64,000 bases of DNA from Candidatus Nomurabacteria bacterium (lineage in GTDB: Bacteria; Patescibacteriota; Minisyncoccia; Phycocordibacterales; UBA2100), in contig CALRFU010000005.1 in the NCBI GenBank assembly GCA_943356775.1, positions 11,671-75,670 on the forward strand, given 5' to 3'. Shown in pieces: positions 3,451-57,299 of this stretch. How positions within the stretch are numbered: position 1 is the stretch's first letter; each line of letters opens with the position of its first letter. The translations under genes were made by a program, and so were the position numbers. Below the pieces are notes generated by a model that saw only the letters and a list, made by a program, of their open reading frames with translations, had not been told where the DNA came from and ran no database searches.

Positions 3451-3550
3451 ATAAGGGGGTAATGTACTACCAAAGCGCCGAAAAAGGAAGTCTGCGCAGT
3501 GTGTATAGGAATACTATTCATCTAATCTTAAATGGGGTATACTCGCGGAT

Positions 3551-3676
3551 ATGGCAAAACGAGCGAGTCAGGATATAAAGAATAAGAAATCGCGTTCTCG
3601 AAAGACCTCGAAGCGTCTTGCGGCCAAGCGGGCAATGCTCGCTGCGCGCCCGACGAAGCGCAAGAAACACCGATAA
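3551..3676 (+). CDS. Small highly basic peptide (41 aa), possible nucleic-acid-binding or ribosomal-like
   Basis: Translated by hand: MAKRASQDIKNKKSRSRKTSKRLAAKRAMLAARPTKRKKHR. TATACT box 8 nt upstream of the ATG. Below the ORF-track length cutoff. Confidence 0.3.
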   Translation: MAKRASQDIKNKKSRSRKTSKRLAAKRAMLAARPTKRKKHR

Positions 3677-3809
3677 TATCGAAACCAACCTCCCCTCATC
3701 GGGAAGGTTTTGGTATCAGGGCAAACGACCCATTTTCTTGGACAAATCCCGGAGGGAGGTATAGCATTGGAGCTAGGTCCCGCTCTTGAGGACCAAGGAG
3801 GAAACGCCG

Positions 3810-3911
3810 ATGAGGAAGCTCTTCTATCTGCTCTCCGAGCGAGGAGAGCCAACGTTGTTGGCACTGATCGCCTTCGCGGTTTTGATGCTCGCAACAAAGT
3901 TCGCCCATTAG
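3810..3911 (+). CDS. Small single-TM peptide (33 aa)
   Basis: AAGGAGGA Shine-Dalgarno 7 nt upstream of the ATG. MRKLFYLLSERGEPTLLALIAFAVLMLATKFAH. Confidence 0.4.
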   Translation: MRKLFYLLSERGEPTLLALIAFAVLMLATKFAH

Positions 3912-3924
3912 TCAGGGGAACGCA

Positions 3925-4077
3925 ATGGGAGAAATTATCGATCTTGAAAAAGTTCGAGAGGCTATAGCCAAGCGCCTTGAGGAGAGGCTCTGGATAACGC
4001 TGCTTCTTGCGGAGATCAGCTTGCGTGAATTCCGCATAGATACGGCCACGGGCCAGCCGGTCGCGCTCAAAGAGTGA
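3925..4077 (+). CDS. Small hypothetical protein (50 aa)
   Basis: AGGGGA 5 nt upstream of the ATG. MGEIIDLEKVREAIAKRLEERLWITLLLAEISLREFRIDTATGQPVALKE. A 10-bp stem hairpin (ggtcgcgctc/gagcgcgacc) overlaps the 3' end. Confidence 0.35.
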   Translation: MGEIIDLEKVREAIAKRLEERLWITLLLAEISLREFRIDTATGQPVALKE

Positions 4078-4090
4078 GCGCGACCGAATA

Positions 4091-4414
4091 CTATACGTTG
4101 AGGTCGCTTCGTTTGTAGCGCATTGTCCACGTCTTTCCTCCTCTGCTTACTGAAGACTCGAAGCCGAATGGAACAAGTGCGGTTTCTAGGCCTTTTTCCG
4201 CAGGTTCAGTCCATCGTTTCTCGCGAAGCTTGCCAAAGATGATTTCATGGAACATTCCGTTTGTATCACGGTATAGCTCTTCAAGTTCATTGTCGCTCAT
4301 TTTACGAGCGAAATTGAAGGTAAACGTTATGTGTGCTTGGTCTTCAGTAATATCGGAACTGACAACTTCGACACGTTCTGATGTGTTCGGGACTTTAGGG
4401 GCTGATTCGAGCAT
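4091..4414 (-). CDS. Hypothetical protein
   Basis: 107-aa ORF in the AT-richer island, no recognisable domain. Confidence 0.35.
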   Translation of the reverse strand: MLESAPKVPNTSERVEVVSSDITEDQAHITFTFNFARKMSDNELEELYRDTNGMFHEIIFGKLREKRWTEPAEKGLETALVPFGFESSVSRGGKTWTMRYKRSDLNV

Positions 4415-4530
4415 TTTGGCATTCTAACACCCGTGGCCCTGAAACATTTTGGGCATATGAAGAGGGCGTATTTCTAGACAAATGTTAACGAAGGAGTAGC
4501 ATTGCGGTCTGGTCTTTCATGGAGGTTCAC

Positions 4531-4971
4531 ATGCTTCCAGCAATCAGAAGTTCGCTTCCAATCCCGCAAAAAGTAGTCGTACTCATGGTCGGTCCAAAAT
4601 ACGACCGGCCGCCCGTGAAAGATGCCGTCGTCGGCATCGGTGGTGACCCAATGTTGATTCTCTCGGTCCGGGGATACGTCGACTTCCCTGATCTCGCGAT
4701 TGCCTTGATGGCACGGCCGGATGTCGCACTCATCAGCATTTCGAACGAGACTGGCAGATTGCGCGTAGACCTTTCCCGCGAGTGTGTCGACCTAGTAAAG
4801 TTCGTCATGGATCACCCCCAGAGGCCGTGGATCTACTTCGGGGATCCGAAGCTCAACTTTCTCTCGACAATATTCGTGCGAAAGGGGCTGAGGGTCTTCA
4901 ACGGCGACGGGGAGCGCGCAACGATCATCGACTTGGCCCGTATTGCCGGTCAACGGCTCCAACTCGCTTGA
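4531..4971 (+). CDS. Hypothetical protein
   Basis: ATG at 4531 with GGAGG 6 nt upstream; 146 aa; no recognisable domain. Confidence 0.4.
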   Translation: MLPAIRSSLPIPQKVVVLMVGPKYDRPPVKDAVVGIGGDPMLILSVRGYVDFPDLAIALMARPDVALISISNETGRLRVDLSRECVDLVKFVMDHPQRPWIYFGDPKLNFLSTIFVRKGLRVFNGDGERATIIDLARIAGQRLQLA

Positions 4972-5041
4972 GATATCGCGGCCGGACTTCCCTCTCGGAA
5001 GCCCGGCCGCTCCATTTCCACTACTCTGAGATTATTGAAAA

Positions 5042-5326
5042 TTATTCGTTCAAGTGGGGAGGGGATTCATCGGGGGAGATTTGGCCGCTTTTTAGCTTTA
5101 TCTCATAGGCTTCCTGCATACTGACAATTCTGCCTCTCGTTGTGAGCCAGCCTCTCGCCTCCTCCTTCTTGAAATCGTAAGGCACTCCGGGATTCCGCGC
5201 GATGATTTTGTCGTAGCAGTCCTGATGACTCTCACCAAGTATGTTTTCCCGGTCGTACCGGATAACAGCACCCCGTATTTTCTCTGGACCCTTTTTCCGC
5301 TCAAGCCATCTGCCAAACAATCCCAT
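5042..5326 (-). CDS. Hypothetical protein (94 aa) downstream of a regulator-type palindrome
   Basis: ORF whose upstream region (about -95) holds the 28-bp perfect palindrome 5418..5445. Confidence 0.4.
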   Translation of the reverse strand: MGLFGRWLERKKGPEKIRGAVIRYDRENILGESHQDCYDKIIARNPGVPYDFKKEEARGWLTTRGRIVSMQEAYEIKLKSGQISPDESPPHLNE

Positions 5327-5417
5327 CCGAGAATCGTATCACGCCTCTCCTGGGCCCGAGTAGTAGCTCCGCGGCTGCTTGGCGCGGCCATGGAAACGAA
5401 AAGGTTTTCCCCACATA

Positions 5418-5445
5418 CCAAACTTACGCTATAGCGTAAGTTTGG
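5418..5445. promoter_or_regulatory. 28-bp perfect palindrome CCAAACTTACGCTATAGCGTAAGTTTGG (core TACGCTATAGCGTA)
   Basis: Perfect dyad. The same 14-bp core recurs at both ends of the PaaX-like gene 46470..47045. Position is upstream of 5042..5326 and downstream of rpoD. Confidence 0.6.
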
Positions 5446-5473
5446 TGTGTCTAGGTGAGATGAAGGGTAGGCG

Positions 5474-6745
5474 TTAGTACGAACGAAGTTGTTTGGCGCG
5501 GTCGTGGAAACGGATGCGCTCCAGTGCTTTTGCTTCAATCTGACGAATTCTTTCGCGGGTGACGCCGAATTCGCGACCCACCTCTTCGAGGGTAAAGCAA
5601 ATCCCCTCTTCCGTAAGTCCGTTGCGCATTTCCAATATCTTCCGCTCTTTGGGTGAAAGCTCCTCCAGAATTGCTCCCATTTGTTCATTGAGAATGCGGC
5701 GCGAAGCGTCCATATCAGGGCTGGCGATGGTATCGTCTGCGATAAAGCTGCCAAGTGTCGAGCGCTCATCATCGTCCTCACCTACCGGAGACTCGAGTGA
5801 GACGGTGTCCTGATTGATTTTTTGAATAGTGTAGATTTTGTCTATTTCGATACCCATTTCTGCGGCGATTTCTTCGGGGAGCGGGTCGCGGCCGAGGTGC
5901 TGGTTCAATTCACGTACTTTTTGCTTGTATTTAGCGATGGTTTCCACCATGTGCACCGGGATGCGGATGGTGCGGGATTGGTCTGCCAAAGCACGGGTGA
6001 TGGCCTGACGAATCCACCAGGTAGCATAGGTCGAGAATTTGTAGCCTTTTGTGTAATCGAACTTATCTACGGCTTTAAACAAGCCCAAATTCCCCTCCTG
6101 AATCAAGTCGAGGAGCGTGAGGTCTGGTGAGCGATTGACGTATTTCTTCGCGATAGAGACGACGAGGCGAAGGTTGGAGCGGGCGAGGATGTTGCGTGCT
6201 TCGTTGTCTTCTTGGAGGATGCGCTTCGCCAGGTCCTTTTCTTGCTGACCGTTGAGAAGCGGGTACTGACCAATTTCGCGCAAATACATCTGCACGGAGT
6301 CGTAGCCCGCATCCGAGCGGCGGTTCTGTAATTTCTTGCTCGCCAAGACGGAATCAGCGGAGCTATCTTCGAGCATGCCGCCCCCCTCCAAGATGTCGAT
6401 GCCCGCGACGGAGAAACGGTCATAGATTTCTTCGAGCAAAGAGACGTTGTCTTCAATCGTCGGGAATTCGCGGAGAATTTCGTCGTAGGTGATGTATCCG
6501 CGCTCTTTACCCATCAGGATAAGCGCCTCAACTTTATTTTGCCGCTTATCGCCCGCGCCTTTCTTGGTGGATGCGGAAGCGGAAGCCGCTTTCTTATTCC
6601 TGGCTTTAGAAGCCTTTGCGCTCCTTTTGACCGCGCGCTCTTTCTTGGTGCTCGCGACCTTCTTTGTGCGGGAAACGGGCTTCTTGCGCGCAGGCTGTTT
6701 TGCACGTTTTACCGCTTTTTGTTTTTTTTGCTTTTTATTTGCCAT
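5474..6745 (-). CDS. rpoD: RNA polymerase sigma-70 factor RpoD
   Basis: 423 aa with a K/A-rich N-terminus, regions 2-4 ([40 protein letters not shown]) and a C-terminal HTH. Confidence 0.95.
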
Positions 6746-8613: not shown

Positions 8614-9086
8614 AAGGACATTATGCCCTTTTCAATGCCCTAAGGACAGACGGCGATAATATCGAAACGAGCAAAACTTCCTACTCCTCACCTTCTTGCC
8701 TCTTTCGAATCTCGCCGGGATATGTATCGCTTTCCATAGATACGCGACCTTCAATATTAGGATGGCGTGCCGTAAGTAAATCCATAGATTCTTTAGGAGA
8801 CATATTCAATGCGAGTAAATCAGGCATCAGCTTCCGCACACCCTGCCATTCTGCCGTTACTTAATGTGCTATCTCATCAATCATATCCTCAACCTCACCC
8901 GGATGAGCATATATCTCGGTTCCCGGTATTCTGACTCTTGGATATCCTTTATTAAATTTTCCGTCCATATTTTTTCAACCCACTTGATATGACGCTAAGA
9001 GTACCCCCCTTTTTTTGCAATCGATGCATGTGGAAAAGGTGTCAGTCACATACCCGCATCTCCGCCAACTCCCGACTTTTCACCCT

Positions 9087-9125
9087 TATTGTTTAGCTCG
9101 TCCGGTCGGACATATTAAACAATAC
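9087..9125. promoter_or_regulatory. Nested palindrome TATTGTTTA-N20-TAAACAATA with inner TCCGGTCGGA (downstream copy)
   Basis: 9-bp perfect arms plus an inner dyad, 2 nt after the stop of the 9130..9717 gene. A second copy lies at 9717..9755. Confidence 0.6.
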
Positions 9126-9129
9126 TCGT

Positions 9130-9717
9130 TCAATCAAGGGGAAGACCGAATTCCTTGCGCAGCGGCACATCATACTCAATCGCATCCGCAATGATGTAGA
9201 GTAAATCCTTGCCGATGCGCAGCTCTGCTTTGAGAAGCGCGACTGCCTCCTCACAATCATACGGATATGCCCATACGCTGTCTTGCAAGCGGACGAAACC
9301 AAAGCCAGATACAATGCCGCGCGCTTGTGCACGAAGGTAACTCCGCTTTTCTGGGATATCAAAGATGACCAGCCGCCATTTATGATCCCACCGGAGTGGT
9401 CGGGGCAATGGCCCGCGAACAGTGAGCGATCGCAAGTGAGTTTTACCCTTCTCTGTTATTCGTAACGAAACACGACCTCGCTCACGGACGAACGCGACAA
9501 GTTTCTTTTTCTGCAAACGATAGGCAGCCTCGCGAATGCGCTGTCTTGGATCACGTTTGATGAGCCAGTCGGGATCGACGTATTTCAGTAGCTGCAATGT
9601 ATTTGGCGCAGCCATTGCGACAAGGCCTACGCCAGCAACGGCGAGCGTCCCAAGAATTGCGCGCTCTATTTGCCCGCGCTTGGTCCGTTTCTTAGATGTC
9701 TGCTCCATTGTACCCAT
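9130..9717 (-). CDS. PaaX-like (COG3327-type) putative transcriptional regulator, paralog 1
   Basis: 195 aa with WRLVIFDIPEKRSYLR...GFGFVRLQDSVWAYPYDCEE, a C-terminal signature shared with 46470..47045. N-terminal basic and hydrophobic segment. Confidence 0.55.
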   Translation of the reverse strand: MGTMEQTSKKRTKRGQIERAILGTLAVAGVGLVAMAAPNTLQLLKYVDPDWLIKRDPRQRIREAAYRLQKKKLVAFVRERGRVSLRITEKGKTHLRSLTVRGPLPRPLRWDHKWRLVIFDIPEKRSYLRAQARGIVSGFGFVRLQDSVWAYPYDCEEAVALLKAELRIGKDLLYIIADAIEYDVPLRKEFGLPLD

Positions 9718-9755
9718 ATTGTTTATCTTATCCGGTCGGATAAATTAAACAATAA
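9717..9755. promoter_or_regulatory. Nested palindrome TATTGTTTA-N20-TAAACAATA (upstream copy) abutting the start codon
   Basis: Same arm and inner ATCCGGTCGGAT dyad as 9087..9125. Begins 1 nt upstream of the ATG of the 9130..9717 gene. Confidence 0.6.
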
Positions 9756-9816
9756 AGGTTTTACACAGGATTACATTGGAAACGACGGGGAACGAGGCGC
9801 CGACGTTACTGAGACA

Positions 9817-38224: not shown

Positions 38225-38262
38225 ATACATAATAAGCATGCGACCGCATGCTTATTATGTAT
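38225..38262. repeat. 38-bp perfect palindrome (18-bp arms, 2-nt centre)
   Basis: ATACATAATAAGCATGCG-AC-CGCATGCTTATTATGTAT, in the thrS / surface-protein intergenic region. Confidence 0.85.
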
Positions 38263-38360: not shown

Positions 38361-39875
38361 CTAGTTGCGGTTGATGACGATGCGGGGAGCATCACCTTCT
38401 TTTGAGATCTCAACCGTCATCGAGTCCGTTGTCTGCTTTGCCGTCGGTGCGACCGGAAGGTTTTCCATCACATCGACAGGGCTTGGCGTCATCGTCTCGA
38501 CAGGAGCTTCGACAACATCGAGCTTCGACTCTTCCGGGATGCGCACGGTCTCGTACGCGTCGGATTGGTGAGAGCTTTTTGCTGAGTTTGCGAAGGCGAG
38601 AACCTGGGTCTTACCTGCCGCGCTGAAGAGTGTACCCGGCACGTAGTAGACCGCGAGGTAGGCACCGGCGACTGCGAAGGAGATGATCGAGAGCCAGTAG
38701 AGCGCGTTGCCCAAGAGCCCCGCGTCGAATCCGGTGTAAGGAATCTGAGAGAGCGAGATGTACGAACCCTGAACCGTCACGTACGCGTTGCAGGTATTCG
38801 TGCCGCCGTATCCGGAGACCGTGAGTGTATAGGTCTTGGATACGTTCGGACGAACTGCGAGCGAACCGTTGACCGCGACCGCACCGATGCCATCAGAGAG
38901 CCATGCGCTTGTCGCACCGCTGGAAGACCATGAGAGGTACGCAGCTTGACCGTTGGCAATCGAACCTTGGGTCGCCGTGATGACACAGTAGGCGTTGGTG
39001 GTCGGGTAGATTGGGTACGTAGGATACGTTGGGTAAATTGGGTAAATTGGGTAGACCGGCTGTTGTGGGTAGACGTACTGTACTGGGTACGTGACCGGAG
39101 TCTGAGCGACGGGGATGACCGATACCGTGTTCACATTCGTGTTGACGTTGTTGTTCGTGTTCACGATGTTAATCGGTGTCGAGCTTTGCTGTTGCTGCTG
39201 TTGCTGGACCGGGCGCTGAGGCTGAGAAGCCGGGTACGAAGGAGCGTACGAGGTGCTCGGAGCGCGACCGAACGAAGGCATTGAGAATCCCCCGCCGGAG
39301 CTAGAGCCGCCGGTAGAACCGTATCCTGTCGAGCCGTAGCCTGAATAATAACCAGTTGCGTATTTGTTGTAGGAGTATCCGACGCCATATTGTTTGATTA
39401 CGTCAGTACCATACACATCGGTACCGAACGTGGTACCGCCCCAGGAGTCAGTGCCGAGGGTCGTTCCGCCCCATGCGTCGCTGCCGAGTGTGGTACCGCC
39501 CCAGGAGTCAGTGCCGAGGGTCGTTCCGCCCCAGCCGTCGTTGTAGGTGGTACCGCCCCATGCGTCGCTACCGTAAGTAGTGTCACCCCAACCGTCGCTG
39601 TAGGTAGTATCACCCCATCCGTCGTTGTAAGTAGTGTCACCCCAACCGTCGCTGTAGGTGGTATCACCCCATCCGTCGTTGTAAGTAGTGTCACCCCAAC
39701 CGTCGCTGTAGGTGGTGTCCCCCCAGGAGTCGCTACCCCACGTAGTGTCGCCCCAGCCGTCGTCGGAATCGGCGTGTACGGCGCTCGGGGCAATAAACCC
39801 AGAAGCGATAGTGATTGCGCAGAGAAGCGCGATGACCACAAAGAACTTGCTTGATTTGCTGTTTGCGAACGTCAT
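38361..39875 (-). CDS. Secreted/surface repeat protein with a signal peptide, about 16 tandem 9-aa repeats, low-complexity regions, a sortase-like IPYTG motif, and a C-terminal TM with tail
   Basis: N-terminal signal peptide (FFVVIALLCAITIASG). Repeats GWGDTTY(S/N)D x about 16, encoded by 27-nt tandem DNA repeats at about 39420..39760. Poly-Q, NVNTN and YPIYPT repeats. ...SQIPYTGFDAGLLGNALYWLSIISFAVAGAYLAVYYV then a 90-aa tail. Confidence 0.7.
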   Translation of the reverse strand: MTFANSKSSKFFVVIALLCAITIASGFIAPSAVHADSDDGWGDTTWGSDSWGDTTYSDGWGDTTYNDGWGDTTYSDGWGDTTYNDGWGDTTYSDGWGDTTYGSDAWGGTTYNDGWGGTTLGTDSWGGTTLGSDAWGGTTLGTDSWGGTTFGTDVYGTDVIKQYGVGYSYNKYATGYYSGYGSTGYGSTGGSSSGGGFSMPSFGRAPSTSYAPSYPASQPQRPVQQQQQQQSSTPINIVNTNNNVNTNVNTVSVIPVAQTPVTYPVQYVYPQQPVYPIYPIYPTYPTYPIYPTTNAYCVITATQGSIANGQAAYLSWSSSGATSAWLSDGIGAVAVNGSLAVRPNVSKTYTLTVSGYGGTNTCNAYVTVQGSYISLSQIPYTGFDAGLLGNALYWLSIISFAVAGAYLAVYYVPGTLFSAAGKTQVLAFANSAKSSHQSDAYETVRIPEESKLDVVEAPVETMTPSPVDVMENLPVAPTAKQTTDSMTVEISKEGDAPRIVINRN

Positions 39876-45253: not shown

Positions 45254-46327
45254 TTGCTCTCTGTCAAGACACCTCCTTCTCCCCAAGAAGGGATTGACAA
45301 GGGTGCATATATATGGAAATATATTGAAACTATGGCAGACGCCTTAAATACGGATCCCAAGCATTCGGCATACGTACACACTCACGGCGAGCCGAAGGCG
45401 AGCCTCGTCTCCAACGCGCTCGCAATCGTGGGCTTCATCATCGTTATCGTTATCGTGCTCTGGGGACTCTTCCATATCGCAACTCTCGGCATGCCGTGGT
45501 TCTCTTCCCTTTTCGGAGGAGGATCGCAGACCATTACCGTCGAGGCACCTGAAAACGTAACCTCGGGCACCGCATTCGCAATAACGTGGAAGTACAGCAC
45601 CTCCGAGCAAGGCACGTACGCATTTTTGTATCAGTGCAAAGACGTGCTCCACTTTCAGACCGCGGGCGCGGGCGGCACACTGGATACCGTCCCGTGTGGC
45701 GCGGCCTTCACCGTCGCGACGGCCAACAATAGTCTCATGGTAACTCCGCAGCTCTCGGGCACCACCTCGACGAGCGTCCCCCTCACCATTGTCTTTATCC
45801 CGAGCGCGACCACATCTCCGCAAGTACAAGGAAACGCCACGGTCACCGTGAATCCTATCGCCGCCGCAACTCCGGCGGTCGTGCGGCCTGCAACAACGAC
45901 CCCCTCGGTGGTAACACCCGTGATTCCGATAGCACCAGTTGCGACAGGTCCGACCGACCTCTCGGTACAGATACTCTCCGTCGTTCCGGATGGTTCAGGG
46001 GGAGCCATCGCGACATTCGATATCGGCAACGAAGGACTGAGCTCGACGAGTGTCTACTCCTTCACAGCACAATTGCCGACAGCGACGGGATATCTCTATC
46101 AATCACCTTCCCAAAGCTCACTTGCTCCGGGTGACCACATCGTCAACACGCTCCGCTTCTCGCAAGCGGTATCAGGCATCTTCAGCGTCGTCGTTGACCC
46201 TACGAATTCAAAAAACGAATTGAGCGCCGCCAACAACTACGCCTCTCAGCAAATCTCGATGCCATACGTGCAGCAGACCTACCAAACCTATCCGCAGCAA
46301 TATTCACCGTACCCGTACGTGTACTAA
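45254..46327 (+). CDS. N-terminally anchored cell-surface protein (Thr/Ser/Pro-rich)
   Basis: TM anchor ALAIVGFIIVIVIVLWGLF, then extracellular Thr/Val/Pro-rich stretches and a Y/Q/P-rich C-terminus. Start uncertain (TTG 45254 or ATG 45332). Confidence 0.55.
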   Translation: MLSVKTPPSPQEGIDKGAYIWKYIETMADALNTDPKHSAYVHTHGEPKASLVSNALAIVGFIIVIVIVLWGLFHIATLGMPWFSSLFGGGSQTITVEAPENVTSGTAFAITWKYSTSEQGTYAFLYQCKDVLHFQTAGAGGTLDTVPCGAAFTVATANNSLMVTPQLSGTTSTSVPLTIVFIPSATTSPQVQGNATVTVNPIAAATPAVVRPATTTPSVVTPVIPIAPVATGPTDLSVQILSVVPDGSGGAIATFDIGNEGLSSTSVYSFTAQLPTATGYLYQSPSQSSLAPGDHIVNTLRFSQAVSGIFSVVVDPTNSKNELSAANNYASQQISMPYVQQTYQTYPQQYSPYPYVY

Positions 46328-46427
46328 TCTGTGGTGAATTGCAAAACGAAACTAGCCGCCACAGTATGCGGCTCTTTACTTTTGTTTCTTTTGTATTTTG
46401 TATAAATCCTTTCCCACATTTCTTACC

Positions 46428-46465
46428 TATACTATCTTTACGCTATAGCGTAGATATAGTATAGA
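46428..46465. promoter_or_regulatory. Near-perfect 38-bp palindrome with core TACGCTATAGCGTA (downstream copy)
   Basis: CTATACTATCTT-TACGCTATAGCGTA-GATATAGTATAG, 5-8 nt from the stop of the 46470..47045 gene. Confidence 0.6.
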
Positions 46466-46469
46466 TGCC

Positions 46470-47045
46470 TTAAGTGGACTTTTTGAAACCAAATTCTCTC
46501 CTGAGCCTTGCGTCCCCCTCAAGTTCATCAACTATCATGTAGATTACGTCTTTCCCGATTTTGAAGTCAGCCTTTAAAAGAGTTATCAGATCTTCACAGT
46601 CGTATGGGTACACCCACACGCTGTCCTGAAGTCTTACGAACCCGATATGCATAAGTGTGCGGCGGATTTTGTCTCGAACTGCCTTTCGGTATTCAGGCAC
46701 ATCGAAGATGAGGACTCGCCACCTACCATCCCAGCGAGAAGGCTTTTTTATTGAGTATTGCGACTCGAGGATTGCTAAAACCGATGAACCTTTATTGGTC
46801 AATTGGAGTTTTCCATCTTTTTTCGAAAGGAGTCCTTTTTCCAATAGTAGTCGTCGTGCCCGCCCAATGGTGCTTCTACTCTGAAGCGCATTCGGTAGGA
46901 GCCCCATTTTTTGAAGTGCTTGGGGTACGTTTGGAGCCATCACAGTAATACCGACAAGTGCTGATGTTTTTGCAAGAGTTAGAATTGCATATTTAAAATC
47001 CCGCCTTCGCTTCCTTTTTCTTCCAGATTCTTCGATGACACCCAT
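46470..47045 (-). CDS. PaaX-like putative transcriptional regulator, paralog 2
   Basis: 191 aa sharing with 9130..9717 the motifs WRVLIFDVPEYRKAVR...GFVRLQDSVWVYPYDCED...LLKADFKIGKD. Confidence 0.55.
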   Translation of the reverse strand: MGVIEESGRKRKRRRDFKYAILTLAKTSALVGITVMAPNVPQALQKMGLLPNALQSRSTIGRARRLLLEKGLLSKKDGKLQLTNKGSSVLAILESQYSIKKPSRWDGRWRVLIFDVPEYRKAVRDKIRRTLMHIGFVRLQDSVWVYPYDCEDLITLLKADFKIGKDVIYMIVDELEGDARLRREFGFKKST

Positions 47046-47080
47046 ATACTATATCTACGCTATAGCGTAATTATAGTATA
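47045..47080. promoter_or_regulatory. Near-perfect 36-bp palindrome with core TACGCTATAGCGTA (upstream copy) overlapping the start codon
   Basis: TATACTATATC-TACGCTATAGCGTA-ATTATAGTATA, starting at the ATG of the 46470..47045 gene. Confidence 0.6.
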
Positions 47081-56301: not shown

Positions 56302-57282
56302 TTAGGCTGCAACACTCTCTCCTTTTTCCGCCTTCTCAAGCGCCTGGAGAATCGGCTCGATACCCCCGGCCATAATCTTCGGTACGTTGGACCACGATTC
56401 CTTGATGCGGTGGTCGGTCACGCGGTCTTGAGGAAAATTGTAGGTACGTATCTTCTCGGAGCGGTCGCCGGTCCCGACTTGCGCCTTGCGATCCGCCGCT
56501 CGCTCGCGTGCCTCACGCTCATCCTGCTTCTGTTGAATACGGCTTATCAGCAATGTCATCGCCTTCTCCTTGTTCTGCGCCTGTGAGCGCTCGGATGTAC
56601 ATTTCACGTCGATGCCCGTCGGCAAGTGGACGATGCGGACGGCGGTCTCTACCTTGTTGACGTTTTGCCCGCCGGCGCCGCCCGAGCGCGACGTCTCTAC
56701 CTCAAGGTCGGACGGATTTATTACAATCTTGGTGCGTTTGTATATCGGAAGAATCGCGACAGAAGCAGTCGACGTGTGGGTGCGTCCGGCCTTCTCTGTA
56801 GCCGGAACACGTTGCACGCGGTGTACGCCCGTTTCGTATTGTAGTGTGCGATAGACATCTCTCCCTTTTATTTCAAACTGCGCCTCCTTGTACCCGCCCA
56901 GGCTGCTGCGCGATTCGTCGAGAGCCTTTGAATTCCATCCCCTGGTCTCCGCATATTTCAAATACATTGCGGCGAGCTCTTCTGCAAAGAGTGCGGCTTC
57001 GTCACCGCCGACTCCGGCACGCACTTCGACGACTACCTCATTCGGCCATTCGCGCTCGTTGTCACCTCCGACGATAGACTCTATCTGACCCATCAGAACG
57101 CTTTTTTGGCTTTCAATATCACTAAGCTCTTTCTCCGCAAGCTCTTTCATTGCGGGGTCCACCTCAATCAACTCCTCCGCATCTTTTTCCGCTTGTGAAA
57201 GACGGTTCCATTCGGTAATAAGGAAAGAGACGCGATTATCGTCCGCGTATTCCTCAAGATTTATTTTCTTTTTTTCCGCCAT
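56302..57282 (-). CDS. prfA: Peptide chain release factor 1
   Basis: GGQ motif ([24 protein letters not shown]). RF1-type tripeptide-anticodon region RVQRVPATE...RTHTS (PAT rather than the RF2 SPF). Confidence 0.9.
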
Positions 57283-57299
57283 AGCGTAAGTATAACGCC

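Follow-up and report, generated by a model that had tools for sequence, protein, structure and literature searches.

Two paralogous genes framed by palindromes

The 64-kb stretch of Candidatus Nomurabacteria DNA analysed here (hereafter, the window) carries two genes, gene 1 and gene 2, each of which is framed by two copies of its own palindrome (Table 1). An original prediction, made from the sequence alone, had described these genes as paralogs, and both open reading frames (ORFs) were indeed present where it had placed them; their products are 41% identical (BLASTP E = 4e-43). The predicted bracketing was likewise observed, with palindrome copies of 36-38 bp at both ends of both genes. The two copies beside gene 1 read TATTGTTTA-N6-CCGGTCGG-N6-TAAACAATA, and the inner motif that they have in common is TCCGGTCGGA, not ATCCGGTCGGAT as first proposed. 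Shuffled sequence contained no match to the gene 1 pattern, and none was expected for the gene 2 pattern. Exact copies of TACGCTATAGCGTA, the centre of the gene 2 palindromes, were detected three times in the window, at 5425, 46439, and 47056 (0.09 expected; search at ≤2 mismatches), in agreement with the core that had been predicted to be common to the gene 2 palindromes and to a palindrome at 5.4 kb.

The framing of the start and stop codons of gene 1 was as described earlier, although the details differed: the upstream palindrome does not end 1 nt before the ATG but overlaps its A by one base, and the gap after the stop codon is longer, in both genes, than the 2 nt initially given (Table 1). 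Read on the sense strand, the upstream site of gene 1 contains TTGTTT, which weakly resembles a -35 element, followed by a 16-nt spacer and by TAAGAT, a -10-like element (9725-9730) at positions -13 to -8. The downstream site has CGAGCT where the upstream copy has the -10-like element. Beyond the downstream palindrome of gene 2, we observed a bidirectional hairpin terminator (46354-46373).

Both products scored above the cut-off (24) for the PaaX_M family (PF20803), with E = 2.8e-15 and 56.6 bits for gene 1 and E = 1.7e-21 and 76.5 bits for gene 2. The gene 1 product is characterized, from the N- to the C-terminus, by a basic tail, a predicted winged helix-turn-helix (approximately residues 28-101), and a Cas2-like PaaX_M domain (approximately residues 110-190). 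Both proteins end about 15 residues past the Cas2-like domain; neither has the PaaX C-terminal domain, and no Pfam match to PaaX_C or to the PaaX N-terminal domain was obtained at E ≤ 1. In the AlphaFold model (pLDDT 74.5), helices within residues 28-70 and at 89-101 form a winged helix together with a beta hairpin (74-87), ahead of a beta-alpha-beta-beta-alpha-beta domain; the confidence is low for residues 1-55. Pfam matches to winged-helix families were weak and restricted to gene 2, and the Foldseek alignment to PaaX spans the winged-helix region. The best structural match found by Foldseek was PaaX of E. coli (8a39), followed by Rv0674 and many Cas2 chains. Pfam, AlphaFold, and Foldseek thus support the PaaX-like nature that had been proposed for these proteins. 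A Cas2-type aspartate located after strand 1 (D120), as well as a PYDCE motif, is invariant or nearly so.

We found 871 homologs of gene 1, exclusively in Patescibacteria. The window itself is patescibacterial, with homologs in Kaiserbacteria, Adlerbacteria, and other Paceibacteria.

Table 1. Coordinates of the genes, palindromes, and relic sequences (positions refer to the window, except for the relics, which are given in spacer coordinates of the related loci)
Feature	Position	Strand	Description
Gene 1	9130..9717	-	195 aa; between rpoC and dnaG
Upstream palindrome, gene 1	9717..9754	-	38 bp, 18-nt arms, 2-nt centre; final base is the A of the ATG
Downstream palindrome, gene 1	9087..9124	-	Outer and centre blocks as in the upstream copy; 5-nt gap to the stop codon
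Gene 2	46470..47045	-	191 aa; just downstream of gyrB; domain layout as in gene 1
Upstream palindrome, gene 2	47045..47080	-	36 bp; centre TACGCTATAGCGTA, outer block TATACTAT/ATAGTATA; final base is the A of the ATG
Downstream palindrome, gene 2	46428..46463	-	6-nt gap to the stop codon; located ahead of the terminator at 46354-46373
Orphan palindrome	5413..5450		Centre TACGCTATAGCGTA, outer block ACACCAAAC; 24 nt after the rpoD stop codon
Orphan perfect palindrome	38225..38262		18 + 2 + 18 nt; centre GCGACCGC, outer block ATACATAATAAG
rpoC 3'-end relic	L087, ~825-857; L093, 856-888; L107, 829-861

Bracketing, conservation, and covariation in the protein family

A scan of species-representative genomes yielded at least 593 loci encoding relatives of these proteins, often several per genome. 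From a profile search of 1.84 billion representative proteins, we obtained 527 clusters with a threshold of E ≤ 1e-30 and 3108 when it was relaxed to E ≤ 1e-10; at 50% identity and the stricter threshold, the family comprises at least 527 clusters. Bracketing was evaluated by comparing the 140-nt upstream flank with the 140-nt downstream flank of the family gene at 77 of the 593 or more loci, using pairs displaced along the same loci (n = 275) as controls. The best segment common to both flanks scored at least 12 at 70 loci out of the 77, compared with 3 controls out of 275, and at least 14 at 57 loci, compared with none of the controls. These common segments are palindromes of 34-50 nt, and many of the long copies are perfect, up to 50 nt. 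Their centres belong to a few types (GCTATAGC, CCTATAGG, CGRYCG, and GCGGCCGC), and their outer arms vary from paralog to paralog. The downstream copy lies 5-50 nt past the stop codon, and the whole unit of palindrome, gene, and palindrome measures about 620-730 bp. Bracketing is typical of this large, uncharacterised protein family. The pairing of gene and palindrome, for which the original prediction could invoke position only, is now also supported by these 70 homolog loci, as well as by conservation, by the joint change of half-sites, and by covariation, all described below.

In 86 strong sites, symmetry was retained at positions 1-4 from the centre, which the site search itself required to match, and at positions 10-17, with mismatches clustering at positions 5-9. 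Since the symmetry is held at a CG-rich centre and in an outer block of 7-8 nt but not between them, these sites resemble a protein-binding site rather than a hairpin. At one of the fetched loci (L071), the centre type differs between the two copies while the outer block is the same, so the outer block appears to carry the specificity.

The orthologs of gene 1 at L087, L093, L107, L083, and L001 exhibited identities of only 0.35-0.48 at third codon positions, both to gene 1 and to each other (leaving out the near-identical pair L087/L093). Despite this saturation of silent positions, the pattern TTGTTTA..TCCGRCCGGA..TAAACAA was kept in both copies of the palindrome, and the TAAGAT element of the upstream site was conserved in L087, L093, and L107. 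Measured from the final base of the stop codon, the distance to the centre of the downstream site was exactly 24 nt in six gene 1 orthologs out of seven, and the blocks of this site were invariant. Between the window and these loci, nucleotide homology was confined to the span between the outer edges of the two palindromes. The spacers within the sites were specific to each copy, with TAAGAT in the upstream site of 4 of the 6 orthologs and CGAG in the downstream site of 4 of the 7; because they stay copy-specific across orthologs, the two copies are not undergoing homogenisation with each other. Moreover, in the orthologs of gene 2 (L168-L176), all four half-sites switch jointly between ATACTAT and ATGCTAT. 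These comparisons show that both predicted sites, upstream and downstream, are under selection.

The distance between proteins was correlated with the distance between their outer blocks (Mantel r = 0.315), and none of 2000 permutations gave a value as high. The 30 strongest covarying residue-base pairs all involved residues 18-82, with the strongest signal at residues 56-60 and further pairs at residues 63-65, at the start of the predicted recognition helix, and 77-82, in the wing. The Cas2-like domain contributed none of these 30 pairs, and its variable columns scored much lower, which provides an internal control for shared ancestry. Covariation thus links the outer block to the recognition helix and the wing that are predicted for the protein.

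The position of the upstream site relative to the start codon was also recurrent. Of 67 family genes, 35 have a TAnnnT hexamer whose first base lies at -12 from the start codon, and a further 6 have it at -13. Among 727 non-family gene starts (from the window and loci L001-L166), the same motif was found at -12 in 12.5%, versus about 2% at neighbouring positions, and a Shine-Dalgarno-like motif preceded only 15% of these genes. Given this signal at -12 and the small number of Shine-Dalgarno-like motifs, leaderless transcription seems to be common in the lineage and to be used by the family. Among the strong upstream sites, 20 out of 41 end at the ATG, and 23 out of 41 contain a -10 box in their right arm (9 out of 45 for the downstream sites). 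As judged from these motifs, the upstream site thus overlaps the core promoter, and the downstream site would be a bare predicted binding site. Autoregulation, as put forward in the original prediction, is plausible because the upstream site overlaps a -10 box that is placed for a leaderless transcript.

Genomic context and orphan palindromes

We used a DnaG metagenome scan to collect 80 related loci, in which the order rpoC-dnaG-rpoD is conserved. A family gene separates rpoC from dnaG in only six of these loci (L087, L093, L100, L107, L128, and L159), as well as in the window and in its near-identical relatives L081 and L082. At the same position, sister lineages in the DnaG tree exhibited a spacer of 86-88 nt with a terminator hairpin only, unrelated small ORFs, or IS200-like transposase genes. 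Orthologs of gene 1 with 74-80% identity and the same sites were found in different contexts, for example beside obg (L083); neither obg nor its neighbours there occur in the window. The orthologs of gene 2, which are 69-99% identical, were always found in the order gyrB, family gene, convergent hypothetical gene, and sortase. In the window, the ORF convergent with gene 2 (45254-46327, plus strand) encodes 357 aa and had no Pfam match.

The spacer between rpoC and dnaG (8614-9816 in the window; compared in L087-L166) is a variable hot spot, with lengths ranging from 27 nt to 2.1 kb. Its contents included a bare terminator, unrelated ORFs of 130-170 aa, and IS200-like transposase genes (L095 and L101), as well as genes that, as judged by eye, are PIN-like (L126) or NYN-like (L141 and L148). 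Another palindrome, AATATTAGTGGTTTACGAAACCACTAATATT, was observed in this spacer, within a stretch of 1.3 kb, in L129 (three copies) and L136 (two copies); no family gene was detectable in the spacers of these two loci, and AATATTAGTGGTTTACGAAACCACTAATATT may belong to a bracketed unit of a different family.

A relic of the last ~33 nt of rpoC was identified in L087, L093, and L107 (Table 1); this duplicated sequence is 8-60 nt away from the outer end of the downstream palindrome and ~100 nt away from that of the upstream palindrome. In L093, the DNA past the relic matches the spacer found in relatives without the cassette; in the window, the match to the relic, at about 9048-9077, was marginal only (p about 0.05). 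Since the rpoC relic lies outside the palindromes, the gene 1 cassette would have arrived on a larger fragment, and the palindromes would not be the junctions; this suggests acquisition on a fragment anchored in rpoC. Filled and empty sites between rpoC and dnaG could not be compared cleanly, given how far the intergenic DNA of the window has diverged from that of its relatives. Palindrome, gene, and palindrome together act as a discrete module, which has been gained and lost in intergenic hot spots and which, within Paceibacteria, has duplicated and branched out to many different operator specificities. The original prediction had raised the possibility of compact selfish cassettes, to be checked by the variable presence of the unit in related genomes. 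The unit of gene 1 is indeed patchily distributed in a variable hot spot, but that of gene 2 is syntenically stable down to 69% identity, and the junctions that could be resolved lie outside the palindromes.

Two further palindromes of this class were found in the window away from the family genes, with outer blocks that differ from those of both gene 1 and gene 2. The one at 5413-5450 contains the perfect 28-bp palindrome (5418-5445) that had been predicted, which extends imperfectly to the outer limits; the ATG that directly follows opens an ORF of 25 codons only. This palindrome is probably either the remnant of a lost cassette or the site of a paralog encoded outside the window. At the same spot after rpoD, L166 exhibited a full convergent cassette, L099 two palindromes 40 nt apart, and L133 and L161 single palindromes with other sequences, which suggests repeated arrival and decay of cassettes. 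In L166, the family gene convergent to rpoD is followed by two tandem downstream palindromes (5700-5790). The region downstream of rpoD in the window (3500-5400), next to this orphan, is devoid of long ORFs and of recognisable genes, its ORFs reaching 150 aa at most, and looks variable or decaying. The second orphan, at 38225-38262, is flanked by a pair of convergent genes, and a true hairpin terminator is located 40 nt away. One ORF in this region (38361-39875, minus strand; 504 aa, no Pfam match) contains tandem repeats of 27, 54, and 60 nt at 39430-39725 and probably encodes a repeat-containing surface protein. No remnant of a family gene was detected by tblastn or by a profile search, either next to these orphans or within the 516-nt spacer that precedes dnaG.

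One half-site of the palindrome at 5413-5450, the 10-mer ACTTACGCTA, occurs three times in the window (0.04 expected). At 57282-57291, it overlaps the start codon of a release-factor gene (56302-57282, minus strand) with PCRF and RF-1 domains and a TATACT at -12, in accordance with the half-site predicted to abut the start of prfA. The match extends to 14 out of 15 bases there, and no palindromic partner was found at this position. Both this half-site and the palindrome at 5413-5450 share only the centre with the gene 2 site, their outer block being different.

The sites of genes 1 and 2 had no further copies within the window, and in all 176 fetched loci (~1.3 Mb) the TTGTTTA-type site was found only beside family genes. 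Since their own sites were found only at family genes, we found no evidence of a regulon for genes 1 and 2, and these searches do not support the dispersed regulon that had been suggested initially.

Candidate functions and comparison with known systems

We consider it probable that the two genes encode compact, self-repressing PaaX-like regulators, with a second operator past the stop codon as a looping partner or a transcription roadblock. In such a system, the winged helix would recognise DNA and the Cas2-like domain would presumably form the dimer, and the protein would bind its own operator of 36-38 bp, which combines widely spaced repeats, as in PaaX, with the CG-rich centre found across the family. 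The upstream copy, which ends at the A of the ATG, would overlap the -10 box as well as the point where transcription begins, the mRNA being leaderless, so binding at this site would shut off the gene's own promoter. The downstream copy, promoterless yet selected, would most likely be an auxiliary operator. A loop of ~600-730 bp could bring it together with the upstream copy; alternatively, the bound protein could form a roadblock that insulates the small gene from read-through and from convergent transcription. Binding, repression, and either looping or insulation are thus what we infer from the arrangement of the sites.

Other roles of the downstream site appeared less fitting. It is not the operator of the following gene, since the next gene is convergent in 32 loci out of 63. 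It was also rejected as an intrinsic terminator, since gene 2 has a proper hairpin terminator further on, and it showed neither a promoter signal nor enrichment in -10 boxes. Looping with the upstream site or a roadblock of bound protein would remain as its candidate roles.

Several observations weigh against self-repression by these proteins. Shared descent of the gene and its flanks could alone yield the Mantel correlation. A strict sigma-70 consensus scan called no promoter in either upstream palindrome, so the promoter is placed by the position of the -10 box; moreover, in the gene 2 subgroup, the TA...T element is 2-3 nt nearer to the ATG than expected. We observed no helical phasing in the spacing of the two sites (maximum R = 0.14, a value reached or exceeded in 96% of jittered controls), a measure that is uninformative at 600-730 bp. 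With its only detectable targets flanking its own gene, the regulator is of no obvious benefit to the host, which hints at an unrecognised second function or at selfish behaviour. Finally, the (near) invariance of D120 and of the PYDCE motif would be compatible with a catalytic role.

The unit might alternatively be a mobile, selfish cassette, with palindromes serving as sites of a DNA transaction (excision and integration, or cleavage) that the encoded protein performs or guides, and with orphans as empty or scarred sites. Its traces would include the patchy presence of gene 1 between rpoC and dnaG (in the window, L087/L093, and L107, as opposed to the 86-88-nt spacer of sister lineages), the occurrence of orthologs of 74-80% identity with the same sites in unrelated contexts, and the homology to relatives that stops at the edges of the palindromes. 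The differing orphans that recur after rpoD, together with the full cassette of L166 and the two nearly adjacent sites of L099 at this spot, would also fit, as would the lower GC content around gene 2 (0.44-0.47, compared with 0.53 for the whole window), the conserved Cas2-type aspartate, and the many long copies that are perfect palindromes of up to 50 nt. We nevertheless regard such a cassette as unlikely. The position of gene 2 is stable across orthologs down to 69% identity, and the duplicated end of rpoC (~33 nt) outside the palindromes in L087, L093, and L107 points to the transfer of a larger fragment. The copy-specific spacers have been kept, which argues for long-term separate selection and not for a recent duplication of the target. 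Searches for recombinase or transposase domains were negative, and viral contigs contained a single distant relative. Somewhat further from what we expect, and rather improbable, is that the units are autonomous elements instead of host regulators, the protein recognising the palindromes on both sides of its gene and either mobilising the ~0.65-kb cassette, through excision and reinsertion at palindromes with single copies left behind, or acting as a sequence-specific nuclease or exclusion factor. If this were true, they would represent a minimal self-targeting element built on a Cas2-like domain, and their repeat-insert-repeat layout would echo the duplication of CRISPR repeats at spacer integration.

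The palindromes might instead fold into hairpins in the RNA, one at each end of the mRNA, and affect stability, termination, or translation, possibly when bound by the Cas2-like (RRM-like) domain. Relatives such as Cas2 and VapD can be RNases and the fold is ferredoxin/RRM-like, and the downstream palindrome of gene 2 is transcribed, lying before the terminator. This explanation is very unlikely, however, because the sense strand exhibited no G.U bias (G.T versus A.C, 23 versus 19 in the upstream sites, p = 0.64, and 14 versus 29 in the downstream sites), and because the mid-arm positions are loosely paired, which is incompatible with a stem. The upstream palindrome would not even be transcribed if the mRNA is leaderless; furthermore, the centres form weak hairpins with no T-tract after them, the terminator scan was silent, and no Rfam family matched. 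There is scarcely any chance that the palindromes are generic dispersed repeats, REP- or MITE-like, located near these genes by coincidence and with no link to the protein. Orphans of the class do occur away from family genes (two in the window and about ten class-like in 602 kb of dnaG loci), but 51 out of 64 long palindromes adjoin a family gene, in loci that were chosen for that gene, and each gene has its own sequence on both sides. The restriction of the TTGTTTA-type site to family genes over 1.3 Mb and the covariation of the site with the winged helix also contradict this explanation, which is already largely refuted.

Self-repression, the function that we favour, is known for the protein with the closest solved structure. 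PaaX, the phenylacetyl-CoA-responsive repressor of paa operons, binds TGATTC-N27-GAATCA (39 bp) and represses its own promoter (PMC9493321). PaaX (E. coli W, 8a39), with an N-terminal winged helix, as predicted here, and a Cas2-like middle domain, was the best structural and profile match to our proteins; its operator consists of widely spaced inverted repeats, a layout that the predicted sites would share, with outer 7-8-nt blocks about 20 bp apart. Unlike PaaX, the products of genes 1 and 2 lack the C-terminal helical, ligand-binding domain. They reached only 31.6 and 30.1 bits, respectively, against the PaaX model TIGR02277 (cut-off 264.55), aligning to model positions 35-139 only. The family also differs from PaaX in the extra conserved centre of the site, the second operator past the stop codon, and the apparently leaderless mRNA, and it keeps the Cas2-type aspartate, whereas E. 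coli PaaX reads LLLLSEG at the aligned position and has no aspartate. No paa genes were found near family genes, whose neighbours were rpoC, dnaG, and gyrB in the window, obg and a cation ATPase in L083/L084, and sortase.

The family can also be compared with Cas2, the CRISPR adaptation protein, and with VapD toxins. The C-terminal domain has the fold of Cas2 (Foldseek probability up to 0.99, for S. pyogenes Cas2; target TM-scores 0.4-0.64), and the FDI(P)E and RLQ.SVW motifs of the family resemble Cas2 signatures; a predicted winged helix fused ahead of this domain sets it apart from Cas2. The scores against Cas2 models remained below the cut-offs (22.5 and 23.3 versus 24.5 for TIGR01573; 16.5 versus 23.8 for PF09827). 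There was no cas1 neighbour and, according to Tandem Repeats Finder, no CRISPR array in the window, the neighbours being housekeeping genes. NCBI and JGI records give several family members the name "CRISPR-associated endonuclease Cas2", which looks like a borderline misannotation. Membership in a defence system was examined and rejected, PADLOC giving only weak Cas2 and winged-helix matches.

The best-known precedent for bracketing with a loop is the lambdoid immunity region, in which cI lies between OL and OR and CI loops the DNA between them. In lambda, each operator has three subsites and controls outward-facing lytic promoters, and the unit measures 2.4 kb. The family units likewise consist of a repressor-like gene bracketed by its own palindromic sites, one of them over its own promoter, with ownership indicated here by covariation. 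Unlike in lambda, there is a single site per side (two in tandem in L166), the unit is ~0.65 kb long, and there is no downstream promoter signal. No prophage context was apparent, with no PHROG match and one distant relative (32% identity) in viral contigs. A role as phage-immunity decoy was discarded, neither palindrome pattern being present in those contigs.

In Acinetobacter pdif modules and integron cassettes, each module bears sites for one host recombinase. The family units resemble these modules in that a small gene lies between short, partly palindromic sites, is variably present in hot spots, and may leave single sites behind. They differ from them in that the outer blocks change from cassette to cassette, even within one genome, and covary with the protein encoded between them; Pfam and further profile searches revealed no recombinase or transposase domain in the products of genes 1 and 2.

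A literature search combining PaaX with Cas2-like, Candidate Phyla Radiation, or Patescibacteria did not turn up any account of this family. Recognisable regulators are very scarce in Patescibacteria, and the control of their transcription is almost unknown. Each family gene brings with it a predicted cognate operator with a leaderless promoter inside, and hence a directly testable model of gene control. A conserved second operator past the stop codon of a single-gene unit is rare and could reveal either the self-insulation of small genes or a new type of minimal selfish element. As a whole, the family may represent a natural library of compact repressor-operator pairs with different, non-cross-reacting specificities.

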